Source: Bdellovibrionota bacterium (GTDB taxonomy: Bacteria; Bdellovibrionota_C; UBA2361; JAAYZI01). Taken from it: a DNA stretch of 64,000 nt. The stretch's first letter is position 1. Every line of letters begins with the position of its first letter. Both the position numbers and the translations under genes were made by a program. The notes beneath the pieces are model-generated. The model searched no databases. It worked only from the letters and a program-made list of their open reading frames with translations, and had not been told where the DNA came from. The stretch is from positions 529,454 through 593,453 of the forward strand of contig JBMNIF010000002.1 in assembly GCA_050950765.1 (NCBI GenBank), read 5' to 3'. Below are positions 17,191-46,035 of this stretch, in pieces.

Positions 17191-18318
17191 ATGCGCACAC
17201 CATTCCCTTATTTTGTCTATTTTCTTATCTCTTTTGCTCTGTGCGGTTGCAGTGCCAAAGAGGATCTTCCGCCGTCATTTCTCGCCAATATGGATGACTT
17301 TAAGAAGCATGATATAGTTCCCGATTTTTACCTCTTAAAAACGCCGCAAACTCCAACTACAAAATATCATAGTGTAATTATTGAAACTCCGTTACTGTCT
17401 CTAAACAGGGAGCAGAGATATTATTATGCCGATCCTTCATTTTTAAAGTTCGTGACCGATCTTTTACGAGAACAGGTTGCCCTTAGTGTAGGTAATGATT
17501 TCAAGATAACTGAATCCCCTTCTCCGAAAACTTTCAGGCTACGCCTTGCTATCACAAACGTCACCCTCCCCGATCATAAAACACTCCTCACGGCAAGGCA
17601 CGGCGGTTTAGTGCCGATTAGCCTTGATGATACGATTTTAGAGGCGTATTTTGAAGATTCCTTAAGTGGGGATCTTTTAGGTGGGGTAAGAGATTTAAGG
17701 ATAGGAAAGGTACGAAATCCCAAACTTATTCAAGGTTTTTCATCTCCTCTTTATCTTAAAAGCACCTTCGCCGCATGGAGCGGTGAATTAAGAGCGATCC
17801 TTTATGAGATATGCGTTCCCCCTACACATAAAAAAGATAAGGTGCATTCTAATAAAAAAAGAGAGCTTAAAGAGGGAGAGAGAAAATTCACTTCCAGCAC
17901 AACAGGAGATATTAAAGATGGTGAGGAAAAATTTAACTCCAATACAACAGAAGAGCTTAAAGAGGGAGAGAGAAAATTCACTTCCAGCACAACAGAAGAT
18001 CTTAAAGACGGTGAGGAAAGATCGTATTCTAATGCAAAAGGAAAGCTTAAAGATAGAGAGAGGAAATTCACTTCCAGCACAACAGAAGATCTTAAAGATA
18101 GAGAGGAAAAAACTTCTTCTAATGTAACAGGAGGTCTTAGAGAGGAAAGCAACAAGATAATGCCCTCCTTGCCTATCTTTATTGATAACGAACTATTTAT
18201 TGATAACGAACGAAGAGGTTTTAATTCAGGAAGTGCGTTTAAACCTCAATCTAAAGAAGCGCCTCTTTTTAATGGTGTAGAGAAGAACGAGGATAAAGCT
18301 ATAAAGAAGGTGCTTTAG
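17191..18318 (+). CDS. Putative lipoprotein with internal 20-aa tandem repeats
   Basis: Signal peptide ending ..ALCGCS. About 4.5 repeats of KELKEGERKFTSSTTEDLKDGEE, encoded by 60-bp DNA repeats at about 17850-18130. Confidence 0.5.
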   Translation: MRTPFPYFVYFLISFALCGCSAKEDLPPSFLANMDDFKKHDIVPDFYLLKTPQTPTTKYHSVIIETPLLSLNREQRYYYADPSFLKFVTDLLREQVALSVGNDFKITESPSPKTFRLRLAITNVTLPDHKTLLTARHGGLVPISLDDTILEAYFEDSLSGDLLGGVRDLRIGKVRNPKLIQGFSSPLYLKSTFAAWSGELRAILYEICVPPTHKKDKVHSNKKRELKEGERKFTSSTTGDIKDGEEKFNSNTTEELKEGERKFTSSTTEDLKDGEERSYSNAKGKLKDRERKFTSSTTEDLKDREEKTSSNVTGGLREESNKIMPSLPIFIDNELFIDNERRGFNSGSAFKPQSKEAPLFNGVEKNEDKAIKKVL

Positions 18319-18614: not shown

Positions 18615-19604
18615 TCAGAGACACTTTCCGTCTTTATTCGGTGCGGATAGCATCTTTCCATCTAAAATTGTACGAGGCACTGCTTTTAAAACCAATTCAG
18701 ATCCGCCGCCGTAATCGTTATATTCCACCGTTATCTTATGTTTCCCAGGAGTGATAACCGTTGTTGCATTTTTCATAAGAAATGAATGCGCTCCCCAGTT
18801 ATTGATAATAATTTTATCATCTATCATTAACCTTGAGCCGTCATCAGAGCCTAATTCAAAATTAACTTTGAGATCTTCCTTCGTTTCAATACAACTTTCA
18901 AAACGCACGGAGAAGGAGGGGGTAACTCCACTTACCCTTCTTAACTTTGAGCGATTTTTTAAAGAAACTATCTTCTCTGTGGATTTAATTTTAGGCTCTC
19001 CTGCTAGATCGGCATTTGAAAAATAAGAGACGCGCCACGGATTAGGTACGCAGAGATTCCAAACGATAGCCACACAGATCATAACGGCACAGATAGAAAC
19101 AAGATAAAGAGCTGCCGTTTTACGTTTATCATCAAAAAAACTTCGATTAAACCTCTTATCAAGATCCGCATTAGCTTTAGCCAATACATTTCTAAGGGTT
19201 AGATAGTGATCTTGCAAACAATTTGAGGGTAAACTTTCTGGGATAAAATCAGAGTGTAGCGCCGTTTGAAAAATTGAAAGGTGCTGATACAGATTTTCCG
19301 ATGTAACCGTTCCAAAAAGCTCCACCTCTTGCAGATCAAGCACGATATTATCGGGGTCTGGTGTATTTTCACCGTTTAAATACGACTGAAAGATCGCAAA
19401 ATTATACCAAGCTTTCAAAAGGAGAAGGGCTTGTTCTTTCTCCGAACCGTAAACCGCTACCGCAATATTATCGATACATTCAAGGCTTTTTTGCAAAGAG
19501 AGTAAGAGATCCTTTGCCTTTTCGTATGTTACCTGCGCTTCAACGGAATCTTTTTTTTTCGCCATTATCTCCCTCGTTATTAAATGCCTCGATCTGTTAT
19601 TCAT
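18615..19604 (-). CDS. Membrane-anchored protein with C-terminal PA14-like domain
   Basis: Internal TM helix (AALYLVSICAVMICVAIVW). C-terminal GSDDGSRLMIDDKIIINNWGAH...ITVEYNDYGGGSELVLKA matches PA14 signature blocks. Confidence 0.5.
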   Translation of the reverse strand: MNNRSRHLITREIMAKKKDSVEAQVTYEKAKDLLLSLQKSLECIDNIAVAVYGSEKEQALLLLKAWYNFAIFQSYLNGENTPDPDNIVLDLQEVELFGTVTSENLYQHLSIFQTALHSDFIPESLPSNCLQDHYLTLRNVLAKANADLDKRFNRSFFDDKRKTAALYLVSICAVMICVAIVWNLCVPNPWRVSYFSNADLAGEPKIKSTEKIVSLKNRSKLRRVSGVTPSFSVRFESCIETKEDLKVNFELGSDDGSRLMIDDKIIINNWGAHSFLMKNATTVITPGKHKITVEYNDYGGGSELVLKAVPRTILDGKMLSAPNKDGKCL

Positions 19605-19787: not shown

Positions 19788-20702
19788 ATGAGTAATATAG
19801 CTTATGCCTATAACGATGACGAAACTGTTAACGAAGAATATAGGAATCACGCCAAAGAATTAAAATTGATGTACGGCTTTAATGACGGGAGCCCAAGTAT
19901 AATTAGTGCCTTCTGCGGCCTTTTAAAGGGAGCACTTTTACTTGTAATGGTACTGGCGATATTTTCAATCGCCATCTTGATTATTTACCTCAGTCAACAT
20001 CAAGAACAGATCCCTGCTTTTAGAGCAAAAGTCACAAGTATTATCTCCACCTACTCCGGCTTATCATTCGGCGAAATAGAAGAGATGCGTCAAAATGTTT
20101 CAAGCTCCTTAGAAAAAACAATTCCTCAGATAAAAGATCTGGCGCTTTCAGAAACGTCACGCAGCGCTGTCTCTGCTTCTGAAGCAGACCTCGCTCTTCT
20201 AAATAGTAAAGTTGATATGAGCGAGCCTATCGTAAGAGCGCTCTACAATTCAGGGGTAACGGAGCCTGCAAAACTGATTAACGCTGGTATCGTTATTAAA
20301 GAGAGTAGATCCCAAAAGGTCGACCCATTACTAGCGCTTGCAATCGCAATGCGTGACAGTAAACTTGATGCTTCATCAAAAAGCTTACGTGGTTTTGGAC
20401 TTTTTAAGATTAGTAGCAGCAAGATCCCCAATTTAACCAAGTCACTCAATATGGCAACACTTACGGAAGAAGCTCTCCTTATTCCCGAGATCAATGCCAA
20501 GATAGGTGTTAAATATATTGCGTTACTCGGTGAAAAATTTCGTAACGCCCAAGAGTCAATAATTTACGGCTACTATCTTGGTGCTAAACCGTACCTTGCA
20601 ACACTACTAGGAAAAGAAACACTCTCAGAAGACGCTATTAATTACGCACACACTGTTTCAGGCAATTACCTCTCCCTATCAAAGAGAGTACGCCCTAACT
20701 AA
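19788..20702 (+). CDS. Membrane-anchored protein, possible degenerate lytic-transglycosylase-like domain
   Basis: One TM helix. LLALAIAMRDSKLDASSKSLRGFGLFKI and IIYGYYLG resemble the SLT ES..GAxGLMQ / YNxG blocks, but without the catalytic Glu. Confidence 0.3.
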   Translation: MSNIAYAYNDDETVNEEYRNHAKELKLMYGFNDGSPSIISAFCGLLKGALLLVMVLAIFSIAILIIYLSQHQEQIPAFRAKVTSIISTYSGLSFGEIEEMRQNVSSSLEKTIPQIKDLALSETSRSAVSASEADLALLNSKVDMSEPIVRALYNSGVTEPAKLINAGIVIKESRSQKVDPLLALAIAMRDSKLDASSKSLRGFGLFKISSSKIPNLTKSLNMATLTEEALLIPEINAKIGVKYIALLGEKFRNAQESIIYGYYLGAKPYLATLLGKETLSEDAINYAHTVSGNYLSLSKRVRPN

Positions 20703-20852: not shown

Positions 20853-22478
20853 CTAGAGATAGCCTCTTAGGTTTTCCATAACGGAGGTGATGTTTTGGAA
20901 ATCTACATATTCACGCTGCACCTTAAGCTCTTGCGGTAGCACCTCCTGTTTAGAACCTTTATTATCAAGTCTAATAACGAAGAGGGATATTTTATCGGCG
21001 CACTTTTCATATTCATCTATAAGATCCTGTATACCATCCCCCTTTGTGATCGGAGTGTCCGTTATAACGATTACAGAACGGTTAAACTTAGCCTCTACTG
21101 CACAAACTTCCTTTAGCGCTTGAGTGATAGCACGACCTCCGCCGCTTGGCGCTCCTATATCAGCACGATCTGTTTGCAGACCTTTACCTTTACTTTTACT
21201 TTTTACCTTACTTTTTTGCATCAGATGCAGAGCGTCACTTACCTTACTTTTATCTCCGACCTCAATCACACTATTTTTAGGAGACCCACCGTCTGCAACA
21301 ATCAGGTGTAAAACATCTTCATTTTTAGGAGTAAGCCAAAACTTTCCCTCCTCATTTTTCGCAATATCTGCGAAGGCTTCTTTTAATTCAGCACTAAAAC
21401 TATCTCTTAGCCCCATCTCCGCATTTAAAACAAATACTGCATAGCTCGGCTTTCTTAAAAACTCCTGATACCGTCCTAAAAACCTATTTAATTGAAACTT
21501 ATTTAAGCCGCTCCGCGTTGAAGCCTTTTGCAAGGGGCTTAAACCTCGCCAACTTTCAGAATCGTAATACTTACCGAAAGGAGTTCTGAAAAATGCACCT
21601 GCTAACCTTTTTTGTGCAGTCTTTCCCGTTAAGTAACGTTTAATATCTCTCACAAGTTTTTGTCTCTCCTTATCGCCTTTATGGAGATAAACAAGTTGTG
21701 CACTTATCCCATAAGGAGCTTGTGTAAAGTAGAGTACATCTCTCGGGATGAGCCCTTCTTGACGCATCTTTTTATTAAATCTAGCTGCCATGCGTTCTGT
21801 TACAATAACAGCATCATAGTTGGGGTCTTCAAAAACCCCTCTAAAATCAAGGGGATTAGGAGAGATAAAAGCTGCATTAGCTATAAAACGTTTTAAACTT
21901 TTTCTTAATTCTAACGGATTTTTTTCCGTTCCTTTTTTTTCTGCTAGTTTTAGAACTCCCAGATAAGTAGATAACCCGACGGGATGGTGCGTTGGCGTTA
22001 AAAAAGCGTATTTTAAACCCCCTTTTAAAGTTTCCTCAAAAAAAGCTTCCGCCTTTAAGGTACGATGAAATCCGTCTTGAAACGGCTTCCCCTTATCCTT
22101 ATTAAACGCCACAACTATGGGGCTAAACATAATCTGTTTTATCTCAAGAGCAAGTCTTGTCGCTGCGGAAAGTTGTAGCCACTCTATGGAGGGCATCAGC
22201 ACGATATCTGGATTTTGCAAAAGGTCTTCCTGCTGTAACGTTTGTAAGATCTCCGTGCTGGAGAGGTAGCGCACCCTAAAATCGTATTTATGATCCTTAC
22301 GTTGCTTAGCGTAGATAAATTCAGTAATTGTATTTCCCAACTCGTGCAGATCTGGTGTGGCGATTATCTCAAAGGTGGGACGTTTTATTACGTTATCACT
22401 TTGAAGGTGTCTAAAGACAATTCCGAGTGACACGATACAGATTATACATAAGGTTAAAAAAAGGAGCTTCTGTCTCAT
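20853..22478 (-). CDS. Secreted or membrane-anchored protein with possible C-terminal vWA-like region
   Basis: N-terminal signal/anchor. C-terminal SVIVITDTPITKGDG resembles the vWA TDG block. Last gene in the same orientation as the Tad-like operon. Confidence 0.35.
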   Translation of the reverse strand: MRQKLLFLTLCIICIVSLGIVFRHLQSDNVIKRPTFEIIATPDLHELGNTITEFIYAKQRKDHKYDFRVRYLSSTEILQTLQQEDLLQNPDIVLMPSIEWLQLSAATRLALEIKQIMFSPIVVAFNKDKGKPFQDGFHRTLKAEAFFEETLKGGLKYAFLTPTHHPVGLSTYLGVLKLAEKKGTEKNPLELRKSLKRFIANAAFISPNPLDFRGVFEDPNYDAVIVTERMAARFNKKMRQEGLIPRDVLYFTQAPYGISAQLVYLHKGDKERQKLVRDIKRYLTGKTAQKRLAGAFFRTPFGKYYDSESWRGLSPLQKASTRSGLNKFQLNRFLGRYQEFLRKPSYAVFVLNAEMGLRDSFSAELKEAFADIAKNEEGKFWLTPKNEDVLHLIVADGGSPKNSVIEVGDKSKVSDALHLMQKSKVKSKSKGKGLQTDRADIGAPSGGGRAITQALKEVCAVEAKFNRSVIVITDTPITKGDGIQDLIDEYEKCADKISLFVIRLDNKGSKQEVLPQELKVQREYVDFQNITSVMENLRGYL

Positions 22479-22698: not shown

Positions 22699-24600
22699 CT
22701 ACTCAATCTCAACTATCTGATACGGATTAACCCCCACTACATAATCATCCATAGCATCTTTAATCTGCTGGGCTTGCGTTCTGCAATCCGTAGTTACCAA
22801 CTGACCGTAACGTGTTCGATCACATTGATTTTTGCGCCATTCAGCTCCATCACAGATCTCCCCCACCTGTGTTAGTAAGGGAGCCCAGACACCACCTGTA
22901 TCAACTGCAAACTTATAAAGGTGCCGCATAGATTGGTAGAAAGGCTTAGAGGCGGTTTTGTTATTAAATACACCTTCACAATCACTACCAAAATCAGAAC
23001 ACCCTGAGCTCCCTCTTACAAAATCATATATACCGGTTTTATTTTTTGAAGACCTAAACTCAGCATCAGTAAAACACGTCCCCGTCTCAGTATTTTCTAA
23101 AGCAACCCAGTGTGGTCCCACATCCTTACCAACAGGAAAGATGTGTAGAGGGATATTGTTGGCTACCATAGTATTAACTACCCTCTGCAATTCATTCATG
23201 CCGTTTACATAGTAATTATAATCGCTTGCATTGCAATGTACTCCTGTAGTATCTCCATCCCAACAAGTTTGTAAACCATCAGTAAAAAGCACCACTGCAT
23301 TAGAAACGTTTTCAGAAGCCCCCTCACTATCAGCAAGTAACCTCTGAACCGCCTCTTCAAGCGCCTGCTTTATATGTGTTTGCCCCCTATTCGCTTGCGG
23401 ACGTTTATTTATATCTACACTATCAAACATAGGGATTAAACCGTACCTAACAGCACGCTCTACACCAGCACTTACATTTGAAAAAGGATCACGCGTATTA
23501 ATATCATCACTATCAAAGATACAGCCCTCTTCATCTGTATCTCCATCAGAGTAATCGGTAAAATTTATTAGTTGATCTAACTTATCGGTTAAGACCGTCA
23601 TCCTTGGCCAGAAGAGACCGTTTGAAAACATTATAACTCCCGCCTTATCTCCCGCTACGCTACGCGCCTTAAAAGCTTTTAAGGCGTTATGAATACCGTC
23701 ATAGATATCAGCTAACGGTTGAGGTCTCCCTTTAGTGCCTACTCCCCTATAAGCATAAACATGGAAAGACTCTCTACTGCCAAAGTTATATCTTTCATCT
23801 CCGATCTCTCTAGTAAATTTATCTTTACACGGATCAGCTGTGCTTGGGCAAGGGTGGAGATCTCGAAGCTCGTTACAAGTAAAATTATTATAATCGTCAT
23901 CACCAAGTACAAACTTCTGTTTGTAGTGCTTTGTATCTTCTCCAAAAGAAGTAAGCCTAAAAGTATAACAAGTATCACTTATCACATAATCAGGGCAATT
24001 ATACTCAAAATTAAAGGTATCTTGTGTAGTAGAGAAAGAGGTATCAACTAAAAAATAGATATGCCTCGGCACCACCATAGCCGTAGCTTTTACATAGGGG
24101 GCGATCTCTTTTATACCGAAGAACCTTCCAAAAGACATCTCCGTATCTCGTACATAGTTACCTGAGATACGTACGGCGTTAGGAGTGGTGCAATCTCCTG
24201 TCTCATCCGGAGTAAAAACCTGCTTTCCTAAGCTCTCGTCTCTCTTCCAACACCCCAACTCTAAACGAAAGAGGCTTTCTTCACCTAAACCAACTGCCCT
24301 TTGAGCAGACGCAGCATCTTCACTTTTAGGATCGTTATCATTTAATAACTTATTTACAGCCTCTACGGCTGCCTCTTTTGCCGCTTCTTTAGTTTCGTTA
24401 AGTGCCCTCGCTGAAACGTACTCTTCTAAAGCTCTTAAAGTTGCAAGTTTGGTATTTTGTCTCGCTTTTTCAGCGTCGTTCATCATACGACTAACATCGA
24501 TAACTATGGCAGCGAGACCAAAAATAACTATCATCGAGATACAGAAAAGAACCATAAAACCGCCGTTTTCTCGCTTCTTCATTAGCACCTTCCTTTTCAC
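22699..24600 (-). CDS. TadG-like pseudopilin with vWA domain
   Basis: N-terminus FMVLFCISMIVIFGLAAIVIDVSRMMNDAEKARQ is a TadE/G-like hydrophobic segment. MIDAS motif FLVDTSFST (DxSxS). Confidence 0.6.
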   Translation of the reverse strand: MKRKVLMKKRENGGFMVLFCISMIVIFGLAAIVIDVSRMMNDAEKARQNTKLATLRALEEYVSARALNETKEAAKEAAVEAVNKLLNDNDPKSEDAASAQRAVGLGEESLFRLELGCWKRDESLGKQVFTPDETGDCTTPNAVRISGNYVRDTEMSFGRFFGIKEIAPYVKATAMVVPRHIYFLVDTSFSTTQDTFNFEYNCPDYVISDTCYTFRLTSFGEDTKHYKQKFVLGDDDYNNFTCNELRDLHPCPSTADPCKDKFTREIGDERYNFGSRESFHVYAYRGVGTKGRPQPLADIYDGIHNALKAFKARSVAGDKAGVIMFSNGLFWPRMTVLTDKLDQLINFTDYSDGDTDEEGCIFDSDDINTRDPFSNVSAGVERAVRYGLIPMFDSVDINKRPQANRGQTHIKQALEEAVQRLLADSEGASENVSNAVVLFTDGLQTCWDGDTTGVHCNASDYNYYVNGMNELQRVVNTMVANNIPLHIFPVGKDVGPHWVALENTETGTCFTDAEFRSSKNKTGIYDFVRGSSGCSDFGSDCEGVFNNKTASKPFYQSMRHLYKFAVDTGGVWAPLLTQVGEICDGAEWRKNQCDRTRYGQLVTTDCRTQAQQIKDAMDDYVVGVNPYQIVEIE

Positions 24601-24786: not shown

Positions 24787-27700
24787 TTAACCTTGCTTGC
24801 TACGCACAACCCACTCACTTGTCGTTTCCATATAGTCACACCCAGCTATCTTTGTAATATCTCCGCAATTTTCGATCTCAGATTCTGTCATACATACTTT
24901 TTTCTCACCTATGGTAACTTCTTTTTTACCACTTTCACAAACGCACACACACTCACCTTTACTATTTCTTGAAGCAACAAGGCTTTGATGCCCACATTGA
25001 ATTTTTGTCTCATCACATCCGCAAGCGCACTCATCGGCGTAATACCTTTCATCTTCTCCACAGCCGATATTTATTTTAGAATTACCCTTAAGATTTCCAT
25101 TATCATCGTACTTACAGACACAAGTATTGTCTTCTACAATCTCGTTCTCGCCGCAACTTACACACTCTTCATTTTGCATTACAAACCCTGAATTGCAGAT
25201 ACAATCACCTACTTCTTCATCCCATACTGAGTTTTCAGTACACGTCTGACATTCACAATAAGAACCATTCATAACGAGGTGTTGGTTCTCTCCTTGACAG
25301 AAATCTCCTAGGTTTGCAGCACCTGCCCCGTCTTTTTTCTTAGCACGTCCTGTTAATGAGTCTCTATCATAGATACAAGCACACTGCGTATATATAGATG
25401 CAGAACTACTTCCACTATGCGGCACAAGTTCTGTCCCATCAGGGCAAAAATCACAACTACAATTAGTCGTATCTATTAAATATTGCCCCTGCTCATGACA
25501 CTTTTCTTCACTAGTTGTTATATCATCATCACCATCAATCCCAGTTGTACAGTCGCAACCAGTACCATCTTCATTTCCAACAAAAACTGTGCCATCTTCT
25601 GCGCAATCAACACATTCACAAGATGCTTCCTTAAATTGTTTACCTTCATGAGCGCACTTTTCCTTTACAAGCGCTTGAACTTCTTCACTACACTCACAAT
25701 TTAGTGACTTGCTATCAGTTGGTGTTTGAGAATCTTCAAGGGTGTTCGGAGTGCCCGCTCTATAATTACCGTCACAGATACACCCCGACCCATCTTCAGA
25801 TAATCTTTGATTGGGATTAGTAGTGCACGTCACACACGCACACTCTGCATAATCAAAGTATTCATCGTCGTTGTCACATTCTTCTTCGAAGTGTTTTCCA
25901 CCTTCTTCACTATACTTACACTCTTCACAGTTTAACTTTGTTATATCTGAAGACTCACCTAACTTATGATAAGAATCGCACGCACAAGCTTCTACTCCGA
26001 CCCCTCCAGTACTTGTAGTATTCTCTCCGCAAGAGAGGCAGTCACACTTTTCATAATCGAAGTATGTACCTTCAGGACATTTAGTACCATCACTACCAAA
26101 TGCAGCGCCGTCTACGTCTGAAGCATATTTACAAACGCAATCTCCTATCTCTTCACCTTCAGTAGATATAGTTTGATATGGAGTACAACAACTGCACTGA
26201 GTTATACTAAAGTTTCTTGAGTCCTTAATACAGGCTTCGTATTTGGTTTTAGTCTCTCCCTCTGTTATATTACAGGAACAGGTGCTACCTTTTACCGCTA
26301 CACTATCTTCACATTTACAATAAGCAGCGTTACCTTCTCTAATAAACGTACCACCTGTTTTTTCGCATAACTCTTCAAGCGTAGCAATATCAACATTATT
26401 AGGTCCAGCACCGGAGCTATTGCCCTTACCGTCGCCACCGCCGCTACCACCTTTTCCGCACTTTGCAGAATCTGTACAGGTACAACTTAAGCCGTCACCT
26501 TTATAGCCGTTAGTAGTATCACAGACACAAGTTGTACCATTAAAAGTTGCTCCCGTAGCAGTACAACACTTCTCCTCCTTGCAGGAACACGATCCCTTTT
26601 CACTGTAATAACCTTGTGAGTTGTCGCAGACGCAAGTATGGTTACCTTGTGCATCAGTACCTGCCGCATAACCTTTCTTAGAATCACAAACACAGTTCCC
26701 ATTAGCATCTTGGAAGGTATTGGCTATACAAATACACCCTGCTTCTGTTGCTTCTCTAAAATCTTGATTTCGACAAACACAGTTATCTGTCCCTGCTTCA
26801 AACTCATTACTGACACAGGTGCAACTACCATTTATCAGTGAACGATTGTTTTCACAGACACAGTTTCCGCCGTATGCCTTAAAGTATTTATTCTCATCAC
26901 AGACACAGATACCGTCTTTCCTTATATAATTATTACGGCAGACGCAGTTAGGCAGCTTAACAGAAACGCCCTCTATTGTCTCAGTTTTATAACTCAATAC
27001 CTCATTATTCGAACAACTTCCTATACCACCACAATCACAAGTATCTTCGCTAAATGGATTATAACCATGATCCTTACACCAAGCAGAGATCTCTCTTTTT
27101 TGAGCTTCTGTATAATTACATTCACACCTTTCAGTAGCAGAATTGTAAGTTTTATTTCTATCCCTACATTCGCAATCGCAGGTAGCTTTATTAAACTTTA
27201 AACCTCGATCACTACACCATTTTTGCACTGCCGTTTCATTACAAGAGCCGCCACCGCCGCCACCTGCTAGATCTCCAGCAGCTACTCCACCTCCTGTAAT
27301 ACCATCAGAGATATCACAGCTACAGATCTCAGTGTAATACGCCACCTTTTTATCGTAGCAGTATTGTTTAGAATTTGGTGTATTAGCCTCCTCATCATCA
27401 CACTCACAGGCACAGGTATCTGTATTTAACTTACCAAGCCCGTTCTTTGTTATACAATCTTCAGGGGTAAGGGGGCACTCACAAACCATACTCCCCTCTT
27501 CCTCTGTAACTACAAAGTTCTCAGGACAGACACACTCATAATACCCTTTTTTAGTCTCTTTTACCGTCCAAGCTCCACTTCCACAAGAATCACAGGAGCA
27601 GGTCTCTGCGTTAAAGATAGAAGCTCCTTGCCTAGTACAATCATCTTGAGAATCCCTATATTTAGGACATTGACATTCACAATAATACTTCGTCTCTTTT

Positions 27701-29475
27701 TTTTCATTTATAGTTATAGTTTTAGATTTTTTACTAGGTACCTTATTCCCCTTACATCCATTAGGATCACAACTAAGCTCACATGTATATTTATCGTTAT
27801 TTTTAATAAGGTGTGCTTGGAGCATTTTATCTCCATCTAATCCACCTAGCTTTGAAACATCACATTCGCACATACAGTTATCTTGATTAACTTTCTGATG
27901 GTCAGGATCGTAGCAGTTACTATTCTCTTTAAAATATTCTTTTAAAGTATATATTTTGTAACAATCACAACTATCACGTGCCGTTCTTCCCTTTTTAGCT
28001 GGATCGCTACAAGCACAATATAAAGATGAAGAGTTAGCACTTCTCTCAGTGCCTTCAGGACAATCGACACAAGTCCAGTGCCCATCGATTACTTGTACAG
28101 TTTGATTATCTTCACAATCACAATCACAAGTTGGAATTTGGCTTGAAGGTGTCAAGCTTTTACAAAGCCCTTTTTCACATTCGCACCATTCATTTCCTGC
28201 CCCATCACTCTTTTTAACAGAGCCTCGATTACATATTTGACAATTACCGCTGGCATTTTTTACATAATTATCATTACAAACACACTCTAAACCATCTTCA
28301 GAGGCGTGCGCATTAGATCCGCACTGTACGCACTGACAGGCACTATTAACTACTGTTTTACACCCTTCAAAAGTTGCCTCATCAGTAGGTTTAAGATCTG
28401 TTGGTGTAGGATTAGCACTATTGTCGCAACAGATACTATCACCAACCTCCTTCCAAACTAGCTTTGAATAATCGCAGACACAACTGTTATCTTCTGCGCT
28501 ATACTCTTGATTCTCCGCACAGTTATTACAGTAACAGCCGCCACCTGTCTCGTAAGTGCCGACTACGCCTGCACACACAAAGCCACTCCCCTCGATATCA
28601 TAGAGGCATCGACATCCACTCCCTTCTTCATCTGTATACAACACCTCATTTGGTCCACAATTTGTTGTATTATTTACACATGCACAGACTCCACGCTCAT
28701 CTCTAATAGCGACCTGATAGGCGGTATTACAATTAATCAGTTCAGGCTTACAAAGACACTTTCCATCTTCATCCTTTTCACACTCTAATAACGGCGGCAT
28801 ATTTGATTTCGTACTAAGCTCTCTATAAGCAGAAGCTTTAGCTGTAAAAACAAAATCAGGTATCCACGGTGAAAGTGTTTTATACTTGGTGTGGACTGTC
28901 ACTTCTATTGGGATTCTAGTTAGACCGTCTCTTAACGATTTCGATTCCTCAGTAGCTTCACCCTCAAGAGCGTACTTAGCTCCTTGAACGGGGAGTTTAA
29001 TCTCTATTATTCCTTTATCTGTTGCTTTTCCTTGCTCGTCATCTCTTACAGCTAATAGCTGCACAACCCCTTTGTCATTAACCTTTCTCTCTTCAATCTC
29101 TTTATCGTTTAGAGTTCCGATTAAAAAACCCTCCATATACTTATAAGCACGGTCTCTAATGCTTATCATCGCAGGTGCATTTTCTTGAATACCAACTTCA
29201 CTACACTCTTCCTGACCAGTATTCATATTCACTACGCAAAGATCTTTGACCACATCTTCAAGATCCGGCACAACAGCTGCCAGTTGTGCAGCCTGTTCTG
29301 CTGCATTTTGGATGGTGGTCTTAGCATAAAGCGCAAATGAAAAGTCTATAATTCCTAAAATTAGGATTAGGAATATCGGTATTCCTATGGCGAACTCAAC
29401 CATCGTTGCACCACAATTTCTTACGTTGTTATTTTTAATAGTAGTCATAATAATTACCTCATTAAATACCAACAC
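24787..29475 (-). CDS. Giant (1562 aa) TadE-like pseudopilin-N-terminus protein made of cysteine-rich CxC repeats
   Basis: N-terminus GATMVEFAIGIPIFLILILGIIDFSFALY (TadE-like). About 1300 aa of repeating C-x-C-x(10-16)-C units (CVCDENKY.., CVCENN.., CTCVSN.., CVCRNQ..). Gly-rich linkers (GGGGGGS). Start overlaps the stop of the upstream tadE-like gene. Confidence 0.6.
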   Translation of the reverse strand: MLVFNEVIIMTTIKNNNVRNCGATMVEFAIGIPIFLILILGIIDFSFALYAKTTIQNAAEQAAQLAAVVPDLEDVVKDLCVVNMNTGQEECSEVGIQENAPAMISIRDRAYKYMEGFLIGTLNDKEIEERKVNDKGVVQLLAVRDDEQGKATDKGIIEIKLPVQGAKYALEGEATEESKSLRDGLTRIPIEVTVHTKYKTLSPWIPDFVFTAKASAYRELSTKSNMPPLLECEKDEDGKCLCKPELINCNTAYQVAIRDERGVCACVNNTTNCGPNEVLYTDEEGSGCRCLYDIEGSGFVCAGVVGTYETGGGCYCNNCAENQEYSAEDNSCVCDYSKLVWKEVGDSICCDNSANPTPTDLKPTDEATFEGCKTVVNSACQCVQCGSNAHASEDGLECVCNDNYVKNASGNCQICNRGSVKKSDGAGNEWCECEKGLCKSLTPSSQIPTCDCDCEDNQTVQVIDGHWTCVDCPEGTERSANSSSLYCACSDPAKKGRTARDSCDCYKIYTLKEYFKENSNCYDPDHQKVNQDNCMCECDVSKLGGLDGDKMLQAHLIKNNDKYTCELSCDPNGCKGNKVPSKKSKTITINEKKETKYYCECQCPKYRDSQDDCTRQGASIFNAETCSCDSCGSGAWTVKETKKGYYECVCPENFVVTEEEGSMVCECPLTPEDCITKNGLGKLNTDTCACECDDEEANTPNSKQYCYDKKVAYYTEICSCDISDGITGGGVAAGDLAGGGGGGSCNETAVQKWCSDRGLKFNKATCDCECRDRNKTYNSATERCECNYTEAQKREISAWCKDHGYNPFSEDTCDCGGIGSCSNNEVLSYKTETIEGVSVKLPNCVCRNNYIRKDGICVCDENKYFKAYGGNCVCENNRSLINGSCTCVSNEFEAGTDNCVCRNQDFREATEAGCICIANTFQDANGNCVCDSKKGYAAGTDAQGNHTCVCDNSQGYYSEKGSCSCKEEKCCTATGATFNGTTCVCDTTNGYKGDGLSCTCTDSAKCGKGGSGGGDGKGNSSGAGPNNVDIATLEELCEKTGGTFIREGNAAYCKCEDSVAVKGSTCSCNITEGETKTKYEACIKDSRNFSITQCSCCTPYQTISTEGEEIGDCVCKYASDVDGAAFGSDGTKCPEGTYFDYEKCDCLSCGENTTSTGGVGVEACACDSYHKLGESSDITKLNCEECKYSEEGGKHFEEECDNDDEYFDYAECACVTCTTNPNQRLSEDGSGCICDGNYRAGTPNTLEDSQTPTDSKSLNCECSEEVQALVKEKCAHEGKQFKEASCECVDCAEDGTVFVGNEDGTGCDCTTGIDGDDDITTSEEKCHEQGQYLIDTTNCSCDFCPDGTELVPHSGSSSASIYTQCACIYDRDSLTGRAKKKDGAGAANLGDFCQGENQHLVMNGSYCECQTCTENSVWDEEVGDCICNSGFVMQNEECVSCGENEIVEDNTCVCKYDDNGNLKGNSKINIGCGEDERYYADECACGCDETKIQCGHQSLVASRNSKGECVCVCESGKKEVTIGEKKVCMTESEIENCGDITKIAGCDYMETTSEWVVRSKQG

Positions 29476-29478
29476 TTC

Positions 29479-30147
29479 CTAGTTTCTAATCAGATATGGA
29501 GTAGTCTCCGTTATAGTAACGTCAGCCTTACCTCCTATAAACACCGCGAAATTAAAGATACTTTTATACGGCACCGAGACCTCTACCTTCACACGAGTGA
29601 CTGAGGAAACTGAATAAACAACATCCTCTGTATTATCATTTTTTTCAGCACACGGTTTGTACTCATCGCCACACAAGGTTTCAACTTTTCTAATAGATCC
29701 CTCTGGCTCAATATAATTCGAATATCCCGCCCATCTAGGCGGTTTTTGTCTTCTTAAAAGTGAATTAACCCTATCTAATACAGCGTACTGCGCAACGTTA
29801 CTGCCATCTATAACAGAAGAACGCTCTCCATTCCCCACCTCCGTAGCATACCCCTTTCCGATACTCGGTCTCGAAGCAGCAAACCTAGCACCTTCATAAG
29901 CGATACTTTTTAATTTGAAGTATTCGTTCAAATAACAGGAGACTTCAAAGATGCCGACCAATATCAGTAGCATCACAGGAGCAACCAGCGCTAACTCTAC
30001 TAAAACCAATCCACGCTCTTTTATATTTTTCCTGCTCGTGCTTTTAGAAGAGGGGAAAAGGTGAGATAACCCTCTGTAAAATTTTGTCCTTTCTGTTTTT
30101 TCTGAAGCACTAAGCATAATTAAACCGAAAAAACTTATAACAACCAC
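29479..30147 (-). CDS. TadE-like pseudopilin
   Basis: ERGLVLVELALVAPVMLLILVGIFEVSCYL matches the TadE N-terminal consensus. First gene of the operon. Has an extra hydrophobic N-terminal extension. Confidence 0.6.
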   Translation of the reverse strand: MVVISFFGLIMLSASEKTERTKFYRGLSHLFPSSKSTSRKNIKERGLVLVELALVAPVMLLILVGIFEVSCYLNEYFKLKSIAYEGARFAASRPSIGKGYATEVGNGERSSVIDGSNVAQYAVLDRVNSLLRRQKPPRWAGYSNYIEPEGSIRKVETLCGDEYKPCAEKNDNTEDVVYSVSSVTRVKVEVSVPYKSIFNFAVFIGGKADVTITETTPYLIRN

Positions 30148-30621: not shown

Positions 30622-31203
30622 GTGCTAAGCATGTTTAACATTACTAATCTTTTTCAAGATTTTTCCCTCGAACTCTTCTTCTGGATCTGCGCCATAATAG
30701 GTACATTGATCTTTTCCATCCGCCTTTTTATGACGATTTCAGGGCTCGGTGGTGATGATTTAATCTCAGAAGGTGTAGATGATATCGATGCAGATAGCGG
30801 ATTAAACCTCATCTCTCTTACAACTGTTGTCGCCTTTATAATGATGTTCGGCTGGGTCGGTATCGCCAGTCTAAAAGCAGATAATGTCGGCGCTGGATTT
30901 TCAATATTATTTGCCACCGTCGCCGGTCTCTTGACTATGGTTCTTATCGCTTACCTTTTTAAGTGGATCTTCTCTCTGACAGAGCAAGGTGATGTTTTTC
31001 AACCTTCCGACGCTCTAGGAAAAACTGCTGAAGTTTTTGAAAAGATCTCAGCAGGGGGTAAGGGTATGGTCTTTTTAAATATGCAAGGTCATAGAAGAGA
31101 GTTTACAGCCACTTCCGAAGATGGCGAGGAGATCCCCTCTTTTACTAAAGTAGTTATTCAAAAGATCGTTGATCAATCTTCAGTTGTAGTAAAAAAACTT
31201 TAA
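30622..31203 (+). CDS. NfeD-like membrane protein (flotillin partner)
   Basis: Multiple TM helices plus a C-terminal OB-fold-like soluble domain. Directly upstream of the flotillin gene, the classic nfeD-floT pairing. Confidence 0.6.
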   Translation: MLSMFNITNLFQDFSLELFFWICAIIGTLIFSIRLFMTISGLGGDDLISEGVDDIDADSGLNLISLTTVVAFIMMFGWVGIASLKADNVGAGFSILFATVAGLLTMVLIAYLFKWIFSLTEQGDVFQPSDALGKTAEVFEKISAGGKGMVFLNMQGHRREFTATSEDGEEIPSFTKVVIQKIVDQSSVVVKKL

Positions 31204-31223
31204 CCCTATTTAAGGAGCATACT

Positions 31224-32777
31224 ATGCCAACAGCTTTTGCAATTATCCTAATTATCCTATTTTTAATAGGCTTTTCAGTGATGCTGACGATCCCGCGCAT
31301 CTATGTGCGCTGCCCCTCTAATAAAGTATTGGTAGTTTGGGGTAAAGTGAAGGGAGGAAGCGCAAAGTGTCATTTAGGCGGAGCACATCTTATTATTCCT
31401 ATTTTTCAGGATGCAGCTTTTCTGGACTTAACTCCGATGACGATCAATATTCCACTGCGAGGGGCACTCTCAAAGGAAAATATCCGTGTAAATGTACCCA
31501 GCACATTTACCATTAAGATCGATGCTCGTCCTGATTCTGTAGGTAACGCCGCTACCTCACTACTCGGTTTAGCACGCCATGAAATAGAATCTATGGCGAC
31601 AGAGATCTTAACAGGACAACTTCGTTTGACGGTAGCATCTTTAACTATTGAAGAGATCAATCAGAACAGAGAACGGTTCTTAGAAGTTATCCGTGACAAT
31701 ATCCAGCCGGAGCTGCAAAAGATCGGCTTAAGTCTAATTAACGTTAATATTACAGATATCACCGATGAATCAGGTTACATCGAAAGCATCGGTAAAAAGG
31801 CGGCTTCAACAGCTCTTAACCAAGCTAAAATTGATGTTGCTCAACAAGAAAAACTTGGAGAGGTCGGTAAGGCTCAAGCTGATAGAGACCGTCGTATGCA
31901 AGTTGCACAACTTAACGCAGAAGCGGTTGAAGGTGAAAATGTTGCAGCAGCTAAGATCGCTTCCTTTAATGCAGATTTAGCAGAAAAAAATGCAGAAGCG
32001 CAGCGTCGTTCTGAAATTGCAGCACAGATTGCAGATGCTAAGATCCAAGAAGAGCGCGCTAACGCTGAAAAAGCCAGACTCCTCGCCGACGAAGTTGTTC
32101 CGAGAGAGATCGCAAAACGTAAACTTGAGATCGATTCTGCTGCTCGAGCAGCACAGATGAAGATCGAAGCCGAAGGTCGCTCTTCTCAATTACAGATCGA
32201 CTCCTCAGCACGCGCTGCACAGATGAAGATCGAGGCTGAAGGTAGAGCGGCACAGATGGAGATCGAGGCTGGTGGTAAATCAGCGCAGATGAAGATCGAG
32301 GCTGAAGGTAGAGCGGAGCAACTTCGGGCGGAAGCAGCAGGTCAAGCTGATGCTATCATCTCCGTACAAAGTGCAGAAGCTGAAGGTCAATACAAGGTGC
32401 TTGTTTCAAAAGCACGCGGTTATCAAGACCTCGTAAAGTCCTGCACCACCGCACAAGATGCCACAACTATCTTATTAGTTGAAAAGATGGAAGACCTTGT
32501 AAAACTTCAAACAGAAGCTATCAAAAACATCAAGATTGATAAGATCACAGTTTGGGATAGTGGCAACAACGAAAAAGGTAGCTCAACTGCTAACTTTATG
32601 AGTAGTATGGTTAAAAGCTTACCAACATTGCACGATGTAGCAGGTATGGCGGGAGTTAATTTACCTGCTTACTTAGGTGATATAAAACCTATCGCCAAGC
32701 CTCTGCCAAGCGCTCAAGGTGGTATCCCAACTCAATCAACAGAGAAAAGCACTCCACCAAGTGCACCTGCTAAATAA
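31224..32777 (+). CDS. floT: Flotillin-like SPFH/band-7 protein
   Basis: N-terminal anchor, SPFH domain, long A/E/Q-rich coiled coil with repeated AAQMKIEAEGR units (flotillin EA repeats). Confidence 0.8.
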   Translation: MPTAFAIILIILFLIGFSVMLTIPRIYVRCPSNKVLVVWGKVKGGSAKCHLGGAHLIIPIFQDAAFLDLTPMTINIPLRGALSKENIRVNVPSTFTIKIDARPDSVGNAATSLLGLARHEIESMATEILTGQLRLTVASLTIEEINQNRERFLEVIRDNIQPELQKIGLSLINVNITDITDESGYIESIGKKAASTALNQAKIDVAQQEKLGEVGKAQADRDRRMQVAQLNAEAVEGENVAAAKIASFNADLAEKNAEAQRRSEIAAQIADAKIQEERANAEKARLLADEVVPREIAKRKLEIDSAARAAQMKIEAEGRSSQLQIDSSARAAQMKIEAEGRAAQMEIEAGGKSAQMKIEAEGRAEQLRAEAAGQADAIISVQSAEAEGQYKVLVSKARGYQDLVKSCTTAQDATTILLVEKMEDLVKLQTEAIKNIKIDKITVWDSGNNEKGSSTANFMSSMVKSLPTLHDVAGMAGVNLPAYLGDIKPIAKPLPSAQGGIPTQSTEKSTPPSAPAK

Positions 32778-36956: not shown

Positions 36957-39900
36957 ATGCAGAAGTTTACCTTAAGAACCTTGAAATTAGTTGTGCTGTT
37001 TAGCTTTTTCTGTGGCAGTCTGGCAGGTGCGGAAACTTTTTTGCCAACCACTCAAAATTATAACTATAATTTCAACATCCTAAACAACTTATCAACACCG
37101 CCTACTGCACAAAACTTTAATATTAAAAACTTCTCTCTCTTCTCTACCTTAAAAAAATCACTCCCCTTTAGAAGAGAGTTCTTTGGAAATCCTCCCCCTT
37201 ATCTAGCAGCGCAAGTAACCTCCATCTCTATGGGCTACTTTCACGCCTGTGCTATTGTAGGAGGGCGTCTCTATTGTTGGGGGCTTAACTCCTCCGGTCA
37301 ACTCGGGATTAACAGCACTGACACCACAACAACTCCAACTTTAACTTACGACCCTAGCACAACCTCTTTTACAGGTTTATTAGGTGGTCAAGGTGTCTCT
37401 TCTGTTTCTGCTAATGGTTATAACACCTGCGCTATCAACGCAGACGGTAAACTTTACTGTTGGGGAGAAAATGACTCTGGTCAAGTCGGGAATGGAACTC
37501 TAGGATTTGATTGTAAGTATCCAGTATTAATTGAAGATCCAAGTACACTTTCTTGTAGTGGTCTTCTAGGTTCAGAAACAGTTATCGCCGTTTCAGTAGG
37601 TGCTTCGCCCAACGACACTCCTGAAGGAGAGAGCTCCGGTAGAACTCACGTTTGCGCTATAAATGCAGATGATAAACTTTACTGTTGGGGAGATAACACC
37701 TTCGGACAATTAGGCGACGGACAAAGCGGAGGGTCTTTACCGCGTCTTGTAGGGGATAGCGGAACTTTAAATGGAAGAGGTGTTGTTCAAGTTTCAGCAG
37801 GATACAGTTTTACCTGTGCTATCAATACAGAGAGTCTCCTTTTTTGTTGGGGCAAAAACGATTACGGACAGTTGGGGATTTATTCAACAGAAAATACCAC
37901 CTCCCCCACACCTATATATAATGCAGATCCAGAAAAAGTTGGTGGACTTGGAACTGGAAACGATCCAGCGGTTATGTCAGTTTCAGCAGGTACAACTCAC
38001 ACCTGTGCCATAGAGAGCGGATATCTTTTCTGTTGGGGAGATGGTAGTTATGGAGCGCTTGGAAATGGTGATGGAACAGATAGAAGTTTTCCAGTCGCTA
38101 TCAATAAAGGATCTCCACCAGGTCAATTAGACGGAAGTATTGTTCTATCTACCTCTTCAGGATCTGGTTTTACCTGCGCTATCAACGAGATCGGTGAAAT
38201 TTATTGCTGGGGGAAAAATACTGATAAAAAACTACTCGGGATTAGTGGAGTAGATACTAGATTTCCCCAGCTTGTGGCAGGTTCAGATAGTAATCCCAAT
38301 CCTGGCTTACTAGGCACATATACTGTAAATGCCGTTTCTTGTTCAAACTCCGGTCCCTCCTATCAATCGATCTGCGGCATAAACTCACAACATAATCTTT
38401 ATTGCTGGGGAGATAGTAACTTTGGTCAATTAGGACAAAACTCTACCACTACCAATACAACACCGACACAAACACTCTTTAATGAAGACTCCACTTGTAA
38501 CGGTATCGATGATGATGGTGATGGATTAACTGATGAAGATTACGTTTCTGTATCTTGTAACACAGGGCTACACGGTTTATGCGCAGCAGGAACAACATCT
38601 TGTAACGCCGGAAGTGTAGTTTGTAATCAGACAAATTCTCCTACAACTGAGATCGCTTGTAATAATATCGATGATGACTGTGACGGTATAACTGATACTG
38701 ATGCTGCAGGTTACGGAGCTGCTTGTAATAACGGGCTACTCGGTGCGTGTTACAAAACAGGCACGATGTCAGTTTGTGATGGAGGAGTTTTAACGTGCTC
38801 TGCTCCAAACGTTGAACCTACAACTGAAGTCGCTTGTAATAATATCGATGATGACTGTGATGGAGTAACTGATACTGATGCTGCAGGTTACGGAGCTGCT
38901 TGCAATAACGGGTTACTCGGTGCGTGTTATAAAACAGGCACGATGTCAGTTTGTGATGGAGGAGTTTTAACGTGCTCTGCTCCAAACGTTGAACCTACAA
39001 CTGAAGTCGCTTGTAATAATATCGATGATGACTGTGATGGAGTAACTGATACTGATGCTGCAGGTTACGGAGATGCTTGTAATAACGGACTACTCGGTGC
39101 GTGTTATAAAACAGGCACGATGTCAGTTTGTGATGGAGGAGTTTTAACGTGCTCTGCTCCAAACGTTGAACCTACAACTGAAGTCGCTTGTAATAATATC
39201 GATGATGACTGTGATGGAGTAACTGATACTGATGCTGCAGGTTACGGAGCTGCTTGTAACAACGGACTACTCGGTGCGTGTTATAAAACAGGCACGATGA
39301 CTCTTTGTGAAGGAGGGGTTTTAACGTGTTCTGCTCCAGATGCAGATCCAGTAAGTGAAATTTGCGGTAACGGCATTGATGATGATTGTGATGGTGAAAC
39401 TGATGAAGATTGCAATGCAGAAACTCCTACCCCTACCCCTCCAGCGCCTTTTGTAGATGCTTGTCCTACCGACCCGAATAAAACTGAAGCAGGAGTTTGC
39501 GGCTGCGGTATAGCCGATAGCGATCATAACAATAACGGCATAATTGATTGCCTTGACCCGAAGTGGCCGACAACAAAAATAGATAGTATCGTTACACCAA
39601 ACACCAAACCTGTCACTCCACGGGTAGATGTAGTAAAGAAAAAGGTCGTCGTTTATATGCAACGTTTTAAACGTGCCGAGCTACTGAAAAAATTACGTAA
39701 CGTAGTTAACTATGCCAAAAAAAATAAAAGGAAAAAAATTACCTTTAGGTATGAAGTTGTTCTAAGACAGGTCTCTACTAAAACAACGTATAAAAGTATC
39801 ACGAAGAAAAAGATTCAATCTCGGATCTCAAAACGTAATAAAGTAATCTTTAAGAAACAGCGGCAAGGAACTTACAAAATTAAGTACAGAGTTAAGATCT

Positions 39901-45909: not shown

Positions 45910-46035
45910 ATACCTTACGGCGTAAAGATATGCTTATGATAAAAAAGGGGTGGGTGCTGCTTAGGCTTTTTTTGAATAATTTTTTAGATAAGAATCCTGC
46001 ACAATTGATTGATGCTAAATTTATGGAGTTTTATT

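Follow-up and report, generated by a model that had tools for sequence, protein, structure and literature searches.

A giant TadE-family pilin with a cysteine-rich repeat extension, possibly displayed at the tip of a Tad pilus

Recent work has shown that Tad (type IVc) pili are tailored through exchangeable minor-pilin tips. In Kil/Tad systems, homologs of TadE, TadF and TadG form heterotrimeric tips, for which numerous disulfides are predicted and whose distal domains vary; they are encoded in stand-alone clusters apart from the machine and have analogs also in Bdellovibrio (Herrou et al., 2025; PMC12075869). For instance, the Tip of Myxococcus xanthus comprises three TadE/F/G-type pilins, KilL, KilM and KilN, whose genes are separable from the core machine; each has a prepilin motif and an α1N helix, and one subunit bears a large variable distal domain (PMC12075869). 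Tip complexes also include a capping subunit that lacks Glu5. In B. bacteriovorus, the tad genes are scattered, and one tip protein is the product of a solitary tadG.

Likewise, modular type IV pilins with grafted modules are widespread, the most extreme one in a 2021 survey having 860 residues (Raynaud et al., 2021; PMC8179133). In Streptococcus sanguinis PilB (vWA) and PilC (lectin), ETEC CofB, Thermus ComZ and the type II secretion protein GspK, a pilin serves as the carrier of a grafted effector that is expected at the tip (PMC8179133). Lastly, the large PilY1 tip adhesins of myxobacteria are β-propeller proteins rather than pilins and contain 7–30 cysteines with 5–20 predicted disulfides; their higher cysteine content has been proposed to stabilise extended extracellular domains (PMC13190605).

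Here, we describe a far larger pilin, encoded on the minus strand of the 64-kb stretch of DNA analysed in this study (hereafter the window; Table 1). Its open reading frame, 24787..29475, is uninterrupted and counts 1,562 codons from the GTG at 29475, which the earlier note had taken as the start. This GTG is an in-frame codon upstream of the ATG at 29448, which is likely the true start; public gene calls begin at the same ATG, and a GAGG ribosome-binding site, read directly from the sequence, falls within the 29-nt gap that separates the gene from the stop of the upstream tadE. The same gene recurs, with 100% identity at the DNA level, in four further assemblies (JGI 3300060823 and three Logan SRA runs); it is thus neither an assembly artefact nor a pseudogene, and the interruption considered earlier was not seen. 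With a GC content of 0.405 and a GC3 of 0.29, the gene lies inside the range of its neighbours, and no DNA-level repeat pointing to recent acquisition was found in it. The label ‘Bdellovibrionota’ is that of NCBI, and the YchF protein is at most 63% identical to that of any GTDB species representative; a predatory lifestyle can therefore not be taken as given. The genome encodes a pyruvate:ferredoxin oxidoreductase (PFOR).

Table 1. Coordinates of the giant pilin gene, its parts and its same-strand neighbours in the window
Feature	Position	Strand	Description
Upstream TadE pseudopilin	29479..30147	minus	222 aa; PF07811, 39.5 bits; G/LVLVE with Glu5
GAGG ribosome-binding site	29457..29460	minus	8 nt upstream of ATG
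Giant TadE-family minor pilin, CDS	24787..29448	minus	1,553 aa plus stop, from ATG at 29448
Leader peptide MTTIKNNNVRNCG	29410..29448	minus	residues 1–13; ends in Gly of the G/XXXXE prepilin-peptidase motif
TadE domain (PF07811)	29287..29412	minus	residues 13–54; ATMVEF with Glu5 and hydrophobic α1N helix
Low-Cys region	28786..29286	minus	residues 55–221; 2 Cys; presumed globular pilin head
Cys-rich segment 1	27316..28785	minus	residues 222–711; 62 Cys; CxC hairpins mixed with six-Cys modules
Gly-rich linker 1, DISDGITGGGVAAGDLAGGGGGGS	27244..27315	minus	residues 712–735
Cys-rich segment 2	26458..27243	minus	residues 736–997; 36 Cys
Regular array of ~11 CxC β-hairpins	26476..26949	minus	residues 834–991; DUF5874 match
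Gly-rich linker 2, GKGGSGGGDGKGNSSGAGPNN	26395..26457	minus	residues 998–1018
Cys-rich segment 3	24790..26394	minus	residues 1019–1553; 60 Cys; most six-Cys modules
TadG-like minor pilin	22699..24582	minus	627 aa; 17 Cys; vWA with DxSxS MIDAS (FLVDTSFS)
Membrane-anchored SBP_bac_11 protein	20853..22478	minus	541 aa; weak vWA_3 match; fourth same-strand gene

The pseudopilin-like N-terminus that had been noted before can be assigned more specifically. The Pfam TadE model (PF07811) matches the whole protein with 54.4 bits and its N-terminal piece with 58 bits, against a cut-off of 22.9, and the N-terminus is thus that of a Tad/Flp pseudopilin of the TadE/TadF type. It shares with TadE and TadF of Aggregatibacter actinomycetemcomitans (PF07811) an N-terminal leader, a hydrophobic helix and, between them, the G/XXXXE(F) motif. 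Here, the short polar leader MTTIKNNNVRNCG ends in Gly and is followed by ATMVEFAIGIPIFLILILGII, with Glu5 and then α1N. This helix is the sole hydrophobic window above 1.6 and the sole transmembrane-like segment of the protein, and a homolog search with the presumed pilin head behind it gave no detectable match. Typical TadE/TadF members have roughly 150–220 residues, a size close to that of the 222-aa neighbour; compared with the A. actinomycetemcomitans tad locus, the giant pilin has 1,553 residues and no adjacent tad machinery genes. It carries the G/XXXXE prepilin-peptidase motif as defined for the Kil/Tad system (PMC12075869).

On the same strand, the gene stands between those of a small TadE and a TadG-like vWA protein, which corresponds to the adjacent-gene layout of a Tip cluster. 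The TadG-like protein has a hydrophobic N-terminus without Glu5 and sub-threshold matches to Tad (18.2 bits) and Tad_C (19.5 bits); its lack of Glu5 fits the published capping subunit and thereby counts for a tip complex. In the intergenic gaps of the four-gene run that ends with the SBP_bac_11 gene, no terminator-like site was found, and this fourth gene possibly belongs to the operon as well. The products of genes adjoining the pilin cluster include a PA14 protein and a lytic transglycosylase (SLT) with a membrane anchor, and a neighbouring RCC1-repeat protein matches the putative metal-binding motif of MopE. The window contains no gene for an Flp pilin, TadA/B/C, RcpA, TadV or a Dsb protein, the Dsb system being one of the checks proposed earlier. 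The link to a working pilus machine is an assumption because of this lack of core tad genes in the window, beside which one has to set the stand-alone Tip clusters and the dispersed tad genes of Bdellovibrio.

It is therefore worth asking whether the TadE-type N-terminus is a mere inner-membrane anchor or export signal, with the array remaining periplasmic or attached to the cell body outside any pilus, for example as an envelope-spanning tether, a ruler or a surface fibre. The window without core tad genes would agree with this, as would the adjoining SLT transglycosylase and PA14 protein and one review table that places TadG in the cytoplasmic membrane and not among the filament subunits; moreover, the 1,500-residue ectodomain far exceeds any pilin shown in a filament, given the survey extreme cited above (PMC8179133). 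Yet Glu5 and a complete processing motif have both been retained, and these serve filament packing and peptidase cleavage rather than simple anchoring; also, the three-gene TadE/F/G layout agrees with tip clusters. We consider a role as a plain anchor unlikely.

Cysteine accounts for 161 residues of the giant protein (10.3%); the leader has one, residues 14–221 have two and residues 222–1553 have 158, just as the earlier note had described a low-Cys region followed by a Cys-dense part. The Cys-rich part of ~1,330 residues is divided into three segments by two Gly-rich linkers, both of which are present as quoted. The head and each of the three segments have even cysteine counts (Table 1), and only the leader cysteine is left unpaired by count. 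The spacing of the cysteines is strongly non-random, in keeping with the recurring CxC units reported before. There are 57 CxC motifs, whereas 5,000 shuffles gave 18.5±3.8 and never more than 34; CC is rarer than in shuffled sequences (3 against 18.6), and CxxC shows no enrichment (13, with 18.6 expected); gaps of 3–9 residues between cysteines are depleted (16 against 63) and gaps of 10–17 residues enriched (60 against 28). Besides the CxC hairpins, the protein has 15 copies of a six-Cys module, C-x3-G-x2-F-x4-CxC-x2-C-x7-20-CxC.

These repeats have hardly any relatives. As a separate piece, residues 834–991 match the Pfam family DUF5874 (PF19202) in four stretches (E 1.7e-11, 44.7 bits against a cut-off of 27.1), a match that spans ~12% of the Cys-rich region and is missing in the whole-protein Pfam scan. 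DUF5874 is an uncharacterised CxC hairpin repeat, for which a literature search gave no function or paper, and its relatives include proteins from bacterial metagenome-assembled genomes. When 1.84 billion representatives were scanned exhaustively with HMMER, only four weak matches emerged, all aligned to residues 834–991 and three of them in proteins carrying DUF5874. The giant protein is a singleton among 5.8 billion clusters, and a search for an orthologous locus to compare found none. It is as exceptional among pilus proteins as had been supposed, and its module family is previously unknown on any pilin.

AlphaFold2 predicts strand-turn-strand hairpins with the CxC in the second strand for residues 834–991 (pLDDT 80–88 in blocks over ~120 residues) and hairpins plus a helix for the six-Cys modules (pLDDT 75–81), both from shallow alignments of eight rows each. 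Fold searches, as suggested earlier, added to DUF5874, the sole family reached, a likeness to the cysteine-rich domains of TNFR, EGF, EphA2 and meckelin that stays below significance. Weak as this likeness is, the nearest folds of the predicted models would all be extracellular disulfide-rich rods. Eukaryotic TNFR, EGF, ephrin-receptor and meckelin (TMEM67) cysteine-rich domains are likewise built as long series of small hairpin modules stapled by disulfides, and the meckelin motif ‘C..YF.....C..C......G.sCvC’ (residues 49–80) aligns with the six-Cys module at a sub-significant level.

Several known families were considered and rejected. Unlike Giardia VSPs, the protein shows no CxxC enrichment, no VSP match in Pfam at E≤10, no C-terminal hydrophobic segment and no CRGKA tail, its C-terminus reading ...EWVVRSKQG; for furin-like, EGF and laminin-EGF repeats, no Pfam match appeared even when 170-aa pieces were scanned with the threshold relaxed to E≤10; and metallothionein and MopE-type repeats were dismissed for the missing Pfam match, the 12% cysteine content of the region and the depletion of CC.

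CxC motifs are found in metallothioneins, whose cysteine content is roughly 30%. The cysteines could also be imagined to bind Zn or Cu, so that the exported protein would soak up metals or buffer redox changes and would not be a disulfide-stapled rod; apart from CxC itself, the low-oxygen niche suggested by PFOR and the MopE-like motif of the RCC1-repeat neighbour would suit such a function. At 12%, however, the region falls well short of metallothioneins, CC is depleted and CxxC not enriched, the whole protein has just 14 histidines, and no MopE or other metal-binding family matches even at E≤10. Regular predicted β-hairpins and even cysteine numbers per segment suit disulfide pairing instead, as do closest folds that are disulfide-rich ectodomains, and we regard metal binding as very improbable.

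Finally, the earlier note saw typically eukaryotic modules in the array and, as a possibility, the mimicry of a host surface protein. Repeats of the VSP, furin, EGF or ephrin-receptor type acquired by horizontal transfer would account for the likeness to eukaryotic domains, but this likeness is below significance throughout, and the Pfam models of VSP, furin, EGF and laminin remain unmatched. Bacterial proteins are among the DUF5874 relatives, no eukaryotic homolog was found, the nucleotide composition is that of the neighbouring genes, the gene shows no DNA-level repeat of the kind left by recent acquisition, and no host is known. Membership in these families is thus not borne out, and we would be most surprised if mimicry proved to be the explanation.

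On balance, we lean towards a modular Tad minor pilin whose disulfide-rich extension is shown at the pilus tip as a stalk or adhesin. The tip-displayed rod of the earlier note agrees in this respect with the Tad ‘Tip’ model and the gene order; the lack of core tad genes in the window weighs against it. We infer that the giant prepilin would enter the inner membrane, where a TadV-type prepilin peptidase cuts off the leader, and that its C-terminal ~1,500 residues would undergo oxidative folding on the periplasmic side. With 160 cysteines, the mature protein could form up to 80 disulfides. These would hold ~57 CxC β-hairpins and 15 six-Cys modules together in three segments, which would be thin, acidic and presumably protease-resistant and for which the Gly-rich linkers would act as flexible hinges. 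Together with the small TadE and the Glu5-less, MIDAS-bearing TadG-like vWA protein, the giant pilin may then constitute a minor-pilin tip complex that primes the assembly of the Flp filament and remains at its distal end, from where the Cys-rich array would project towards a prey cell or surface as a long stalk, an adhesin for a presumed ligand, or a reach-extender. A thin rod could pass lengthwise through the secretin channel; a 150-kDa globule could not. Against this reading counts PFOR, a hint of low-oxygen life, in which keeping 80 disulfides is harder.

The likeness to the Kil tips is one of layout and motifs. There, a compact α/β fold makes up the large domain, which belongs to TadG/KilN; here, the extension is carried by the TadE/F-type subunit, a placement that counts against our reading, and forms a repetitive array of ~1,330 residues with 158 cysteines, and it is the TadG-like partner that carries the vWA domain with its MIDAS. 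Similarly, the modular type IV pilins belong to the N-methylation class (IPR012902), whereas the giant pilin belongs to the TadE class and is nearly twice as long as their 860-residue extreme. A bolder proposal, which we find possible but doubtful, is that a previously unseen class of bacterial extracellular modules was grafted onto a TadE/F-type minor pilin. It would be made of ~57 disulfide-stapled CxC hairpins, among them six-Cys ‘helix-hairpins’ converging on the cysteine-rich domains of meckelin and ephrin receptors, and would provide a deep-branching and possibly predatory lineage with a hinged stalk of some tens of nanometres on the end of its Tad pilus.

This protein would stretch the limit of tip customisation, being about twice as long as the longest modular pilin of the 2021 survey and having several times the cysteines of the Cys-rich PilY1 adhesins (160 in the mature protein), with a module family to which 15 billion predicted proteins offer practically no relatives. 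One may ask how a 150-kDa ectodomain with 80 disulfides is folded and passed through a secretin, to which a thin rod shape may be the answer, and whether bacteria independently invented the hairpin-ladder design of eukaryotic receptor ectodomains. DUF5874, in turn, gains its first functional context from the giant pilin. If the bolder proposal is true, the pilus of this organism would carry its own fishing line, and no known pilin would come near its tip protein in size or in number of disulfides.

The gene for the giant pilin is a single unbroken open reading frame on the minus strand, at 24787 to 29475, and its translation is the one described in the earlier note. Its more likely start is the in-frame ATG at 29448, since a GAGG lies 8 nt upstream of this codon, within the gap of 29 nt that separates the gene from the stop codon of its predecessor; public gene calls likewise start there and yield a product of 1,553 residues. 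The earlier note had named an interrupted frame as a finding that would speak against it. Instead, the gene is intact, and its DNA recurs with 100% identity in the JGI metagenome 3300060823 and in three Logan assemblies, of the SRA runs SRR31061295, SRR31066035 and SRR31066156. This excludes a pseudogene or an assembly artefact and confirms the observation. With a GC content of 0.405 and a GC3 of 0.29, the gene resembles its neighbors.

At its N-terminus, MTTIKNNNVRNCG/ATMVEFAIGIPIFLILILGII, the protein carries a G/XXXXE motif with Glu at mature position 5, the cleavage motif of Flp-type pilins (PMC12075869). Residues 13–54 match the Pfam family TadE (PF07811) with 54–58 bits against a cut-off of 22.9, which bears out the proposed pseudopilin N-terminus, and the N-terminal helix after MTTIKNNNVRNCG is the only transmembrane-like segment. 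With these three features, the protein belongs to the Tad (type IVc) pseudopilins rather than to those of type II secretion. It matched no NCBIfam family.

The open reading frame encodes 161 cysteines (10.3%), one in the leader, two in residues 14–221 and 158 in residues 222–1553. In the latter region, the spacing profile called for in the earlier note is clearly non-random: CxC occurs 57 times, compared with 18.5±3.8 in shuffled sequences (n = 5,000; maximum 34), and Cys–Cys gaps of 10–17 residues are enriched (60 versus 28), while gaps of 3–9 residues (16 versus 63) and CC pairs (3 versus 18.6) are depleted. The region is acidic (230 D+E versus 120 K+R) and only 20% hydrophobic. Both glycine-rich linkers quoted in the earlier note are present, at residues 712–735 and 998–1018, and divide it into three parts that hold 62, 36 and 60 cysteines, respectively. 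Together with the two in the pilin head, the mature protein has 160; the count is even in every unit, which is weak evidence compatible with complete disulfide pairing.

Two types of repeat unit can be distinguished. Type A is a hairpin of 13–20 residues with a terminal CxC, most regular at residues 834–991. Type B, a module with 15 copies and five invariant Cys columns, has six cysteines in the pattern C-x3-G-x2-[FY]-x4-CxC-x2-C-x7-20-CxC, often with a short, helix-like sequence ahead of it (for example, EEVQALVKEKC). An HMM of module B had no further match in the window. When the whole protein was compared with itself by BLAST, only the identity match was returned, and chunked BLAST aligned modules at 30–37% identity, mostly through their cysteines. 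As the gene has no tandem repeats at the DNA level, the array is old and degenerate, not recently expanded.

The rarity claimed for the protein stood: in a word-indexed search of 5.8 billion clusters, the full-length sequence found only itself. The same kind of search with a hairpin piece and with the N-terminal 222 residues gave no match, not even to the protein itself, and thus carries little weight. NCBI annotates the protein, MGI6524552.1 on a 1.25-Mb contig, as ‘MAG: TadE/TadG family type IV pilus assembly protein [Bdellovibrionota bacterium]’. In an exhaustive scan of 1.84 billion representatives with residues 222–1421, phmmer retrieved four further proteins (E 2.5e-9 to 1.8e-4), all aligning at residues ~834–1000; three contain Pfam DUF5874 and one EGF domains, and at least one is a lipoprotein from a bacterial MAG. 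Scanned as a separate piece, residues 830–995 match DUF5874 themselves (E 1.7e-11, 44.7 bits versus 27.1). The best non-self match is a metagenomic protein of 956 residues, ~550 of which form very regular CxC hairpins of the DUF5874 type; a hydrophobic stretch then follows close to the C-terminus. Its apparent identity as a eukaryotic protein of the receptor type suggests that DUF5874 spans domains of life. Our literature search found no paper mentioning DUF5874.

The other eight pieces of the giant protein matched no Pfam family even at E≤10, and the VSP, furin-like, EGF, laminin-EGF, TNFR and MopE models were likewise without a match there. As CxxC is also not enriched in residues 222–1553 (13 versus 18.6 expected), the ‘VSP/furin/EGF-like’ label of the earlier note describes a resemblance rather than membership.

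We modeled two regions with AlphaFold2. For residues 826–1000, aligned with DUF5874 pieces, the model (mean pLDDT 73; 80–88 over ~120 residues) consists of regular strand-turn-strand hairpins with the CxC in the second strand; for residues 1186–1316, aligned with seven paralogous module pairs, it shows hairpins and a helix ahead of the second module (pLDDT 63 overall, 75–81 in the module cores). Foldseek found no match in the PDB at E <0.015 (TM ≤0.24), and its top names, EGF arrays and TNFR CRDs, are not significant. At the sequence level, the whole protein had no match in the PDB, and the profile of the 15 modules matched only meckelin residues 49–80, with a visibly similar motif at a non-significant E of 0.13. 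These resemblances, in part from models, indicate a general class of thin extracellular disulfide-stapled hairpin arrays and do not imply family membership. Metal binding by the cysteines is quite improbable: their pattern, the predicted hairpins and the absence of family matches speak against it. Still more improbable is mimicry of, or transfer from, a eukaryote, for which sub-significant similarity is all that speaks; the host mimicry proposed in the earlier note found no support. A recent horizontal transfer from a eukaryote is likewise unsupported, with no match to the VSP, furin-like, EGF or laminin-EGF models and a composition like that of neighboring genes.

Synteny searches found no relatives of the giant protein in JGI metagenomes, and none of its TadG-like neighbor in GTDB genomes or JGI metagenomes. 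Given that no related locus was found and that YchF is at best 62–63% identical to any species representative, with best matches scattered over several phyla, the lineage is poorly sampled and has no close genome. A predatory lifestyle is suggested only by the phylum label.

Coordinates and characteristics of features in the window
Feature	Position	Strand	Characteristics
Type IVa-style N_methyl pilin/pseudopilin	12724-13110	+	129 aa; G/FTLIELLVV; Pfam N_methyl 34.9 bits
DDE transposase gene	13343-14758		Adjoins the N_methyl pilin gene
DUF3313 lipoprotein-like protein	17191-18318	+	C-terminal half of ~17-residue charged repeats (KEGERKFTSSTTEDLKDGEE...)
PA14-domain membrane protein	18615-19604	-	Just past the SBP_bac_11 gene
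Membrane-anchored SLT lytic transglycosylase	19788-20702	+	Also just past the SBP_bac_11 gene
Fourth gene, membrane-anchored SBP_bac_11 protein	20853-22478	-	541 aa; weak vWA_3 match
TadG-like protein	22699-24582	-	627 aa; 17 Cys
Giant TadE-family pilin	24787-29448	-	1,553 aa
Ordinary TadE protein	29479-30147	-	222 aa; G/LVLVE
15-nt unit TAAATATAAATAAGG	~30274		Intergenic, ~125 nt upstream of the TadE start (30147); single in the window
Membrane protein, then SPFH/Band 7 protein	30622-32777	+	193 aa and 517 aa; divergent from the pilin operon
RCC1-repeat (beta-propeller) protein	36957-39971	+	1,004 aa; 54 Cys; match to MopE putative metal-binding motif
C-5 cytosine DNA methylase	46009-47070	+
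Fic-domain protein	52184-53302	+

The ordinary TadE gene lies directly upstream of the giant gene, and the alpha1N regions of the two products align. Downstream follows the TadG-like protein, which lacks Glu5 in its hydrophobic N-terminus, matches Tad and Tad_C below threshold (18.2 and 19.5 bits, respectively) and has a vWA domain whose DxSxS MIDAS motif reads FLVDTSFS. The fourth gene is on the same strand, and the intergenic gaps of the cluster contain no terminator-like sites. The window contains only one further prepilin, the N_methyl protein, which is unrelated to Tad-type pilins. Lytic transglycosylases of the sort encoded nearby commonly accompany envelope-spanning machines. The RCC1-repeat protein is a second Cys-rich, probably exported protein close to the cluster, and the methylase and Fic-domain protein may be mobile or defense-related.

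In two further assemblies of this strain (L002 and L003), the TAAATATAAATAAGG unit, which belongs to the pilin operon's divergent promoter region, occurs as a tandem duplication. This is the sole difference over ~14 kb and may represent a promoter-length polymorphism. Between the JGI assembly (L001) and the window, there are 12 mismatches across 18488–39161; in L001, the repeat copies at ~38.6–39.6 kb cross-match each other.

These genes can be compared with the published Tad/Kil framework. In Myxococcus, the TadE/F/G homologs KilM/L/N form heterotrimeric tips with many predicted disulfides and exposed, variable distal domains; paralogous tip clusters sit apart from the machine genes, and analogs are found in Bdellovibrio and in pathogens (PMC12075869). 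In B. bacteriovorus, the tad genes are scattered, with a tip protein encoded by a lone tadG, and prey invasion requires the Tad machine. Assembly is primed by tip complexes, whose cap is a subunit without Glu5; here, this would be the vWA/MIDAS TadG-like protein. Given this good fit, we lean towards a stand-alone tip cluster as the reading of this locus, in which the subunit in TadF position would bear a hinged stalk or adhesin, rich in disulfides and without precedent. The pilin fusion described in the earlier note holds up, and so, by this comparison, does its tip-adhesin idea.

The giant protein might instead serve as an anchor only, without incorporation into a pilus. Its sheer size speaks for this, as does the lack of machinery nearby, there being no Flp pilin, TadA/B/C, RcpA, TadV or Dsb genes among the open reading frames of the window; we nevertheless consider such a role rather unlikely. 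In the favored reading of a tip cluster, the protein would extend a known theme. Module-grafted pilins are widespread, the most extreme in a 2021 survey having 860 residues (PMC8179133), and Cys-rich PilY1 tip adhesins contain 7–30 cysteines (PMC13190605). To the modular Tad minor pilins and tips already known, the giant protein would add an unprecedented disulfide-rich extension.
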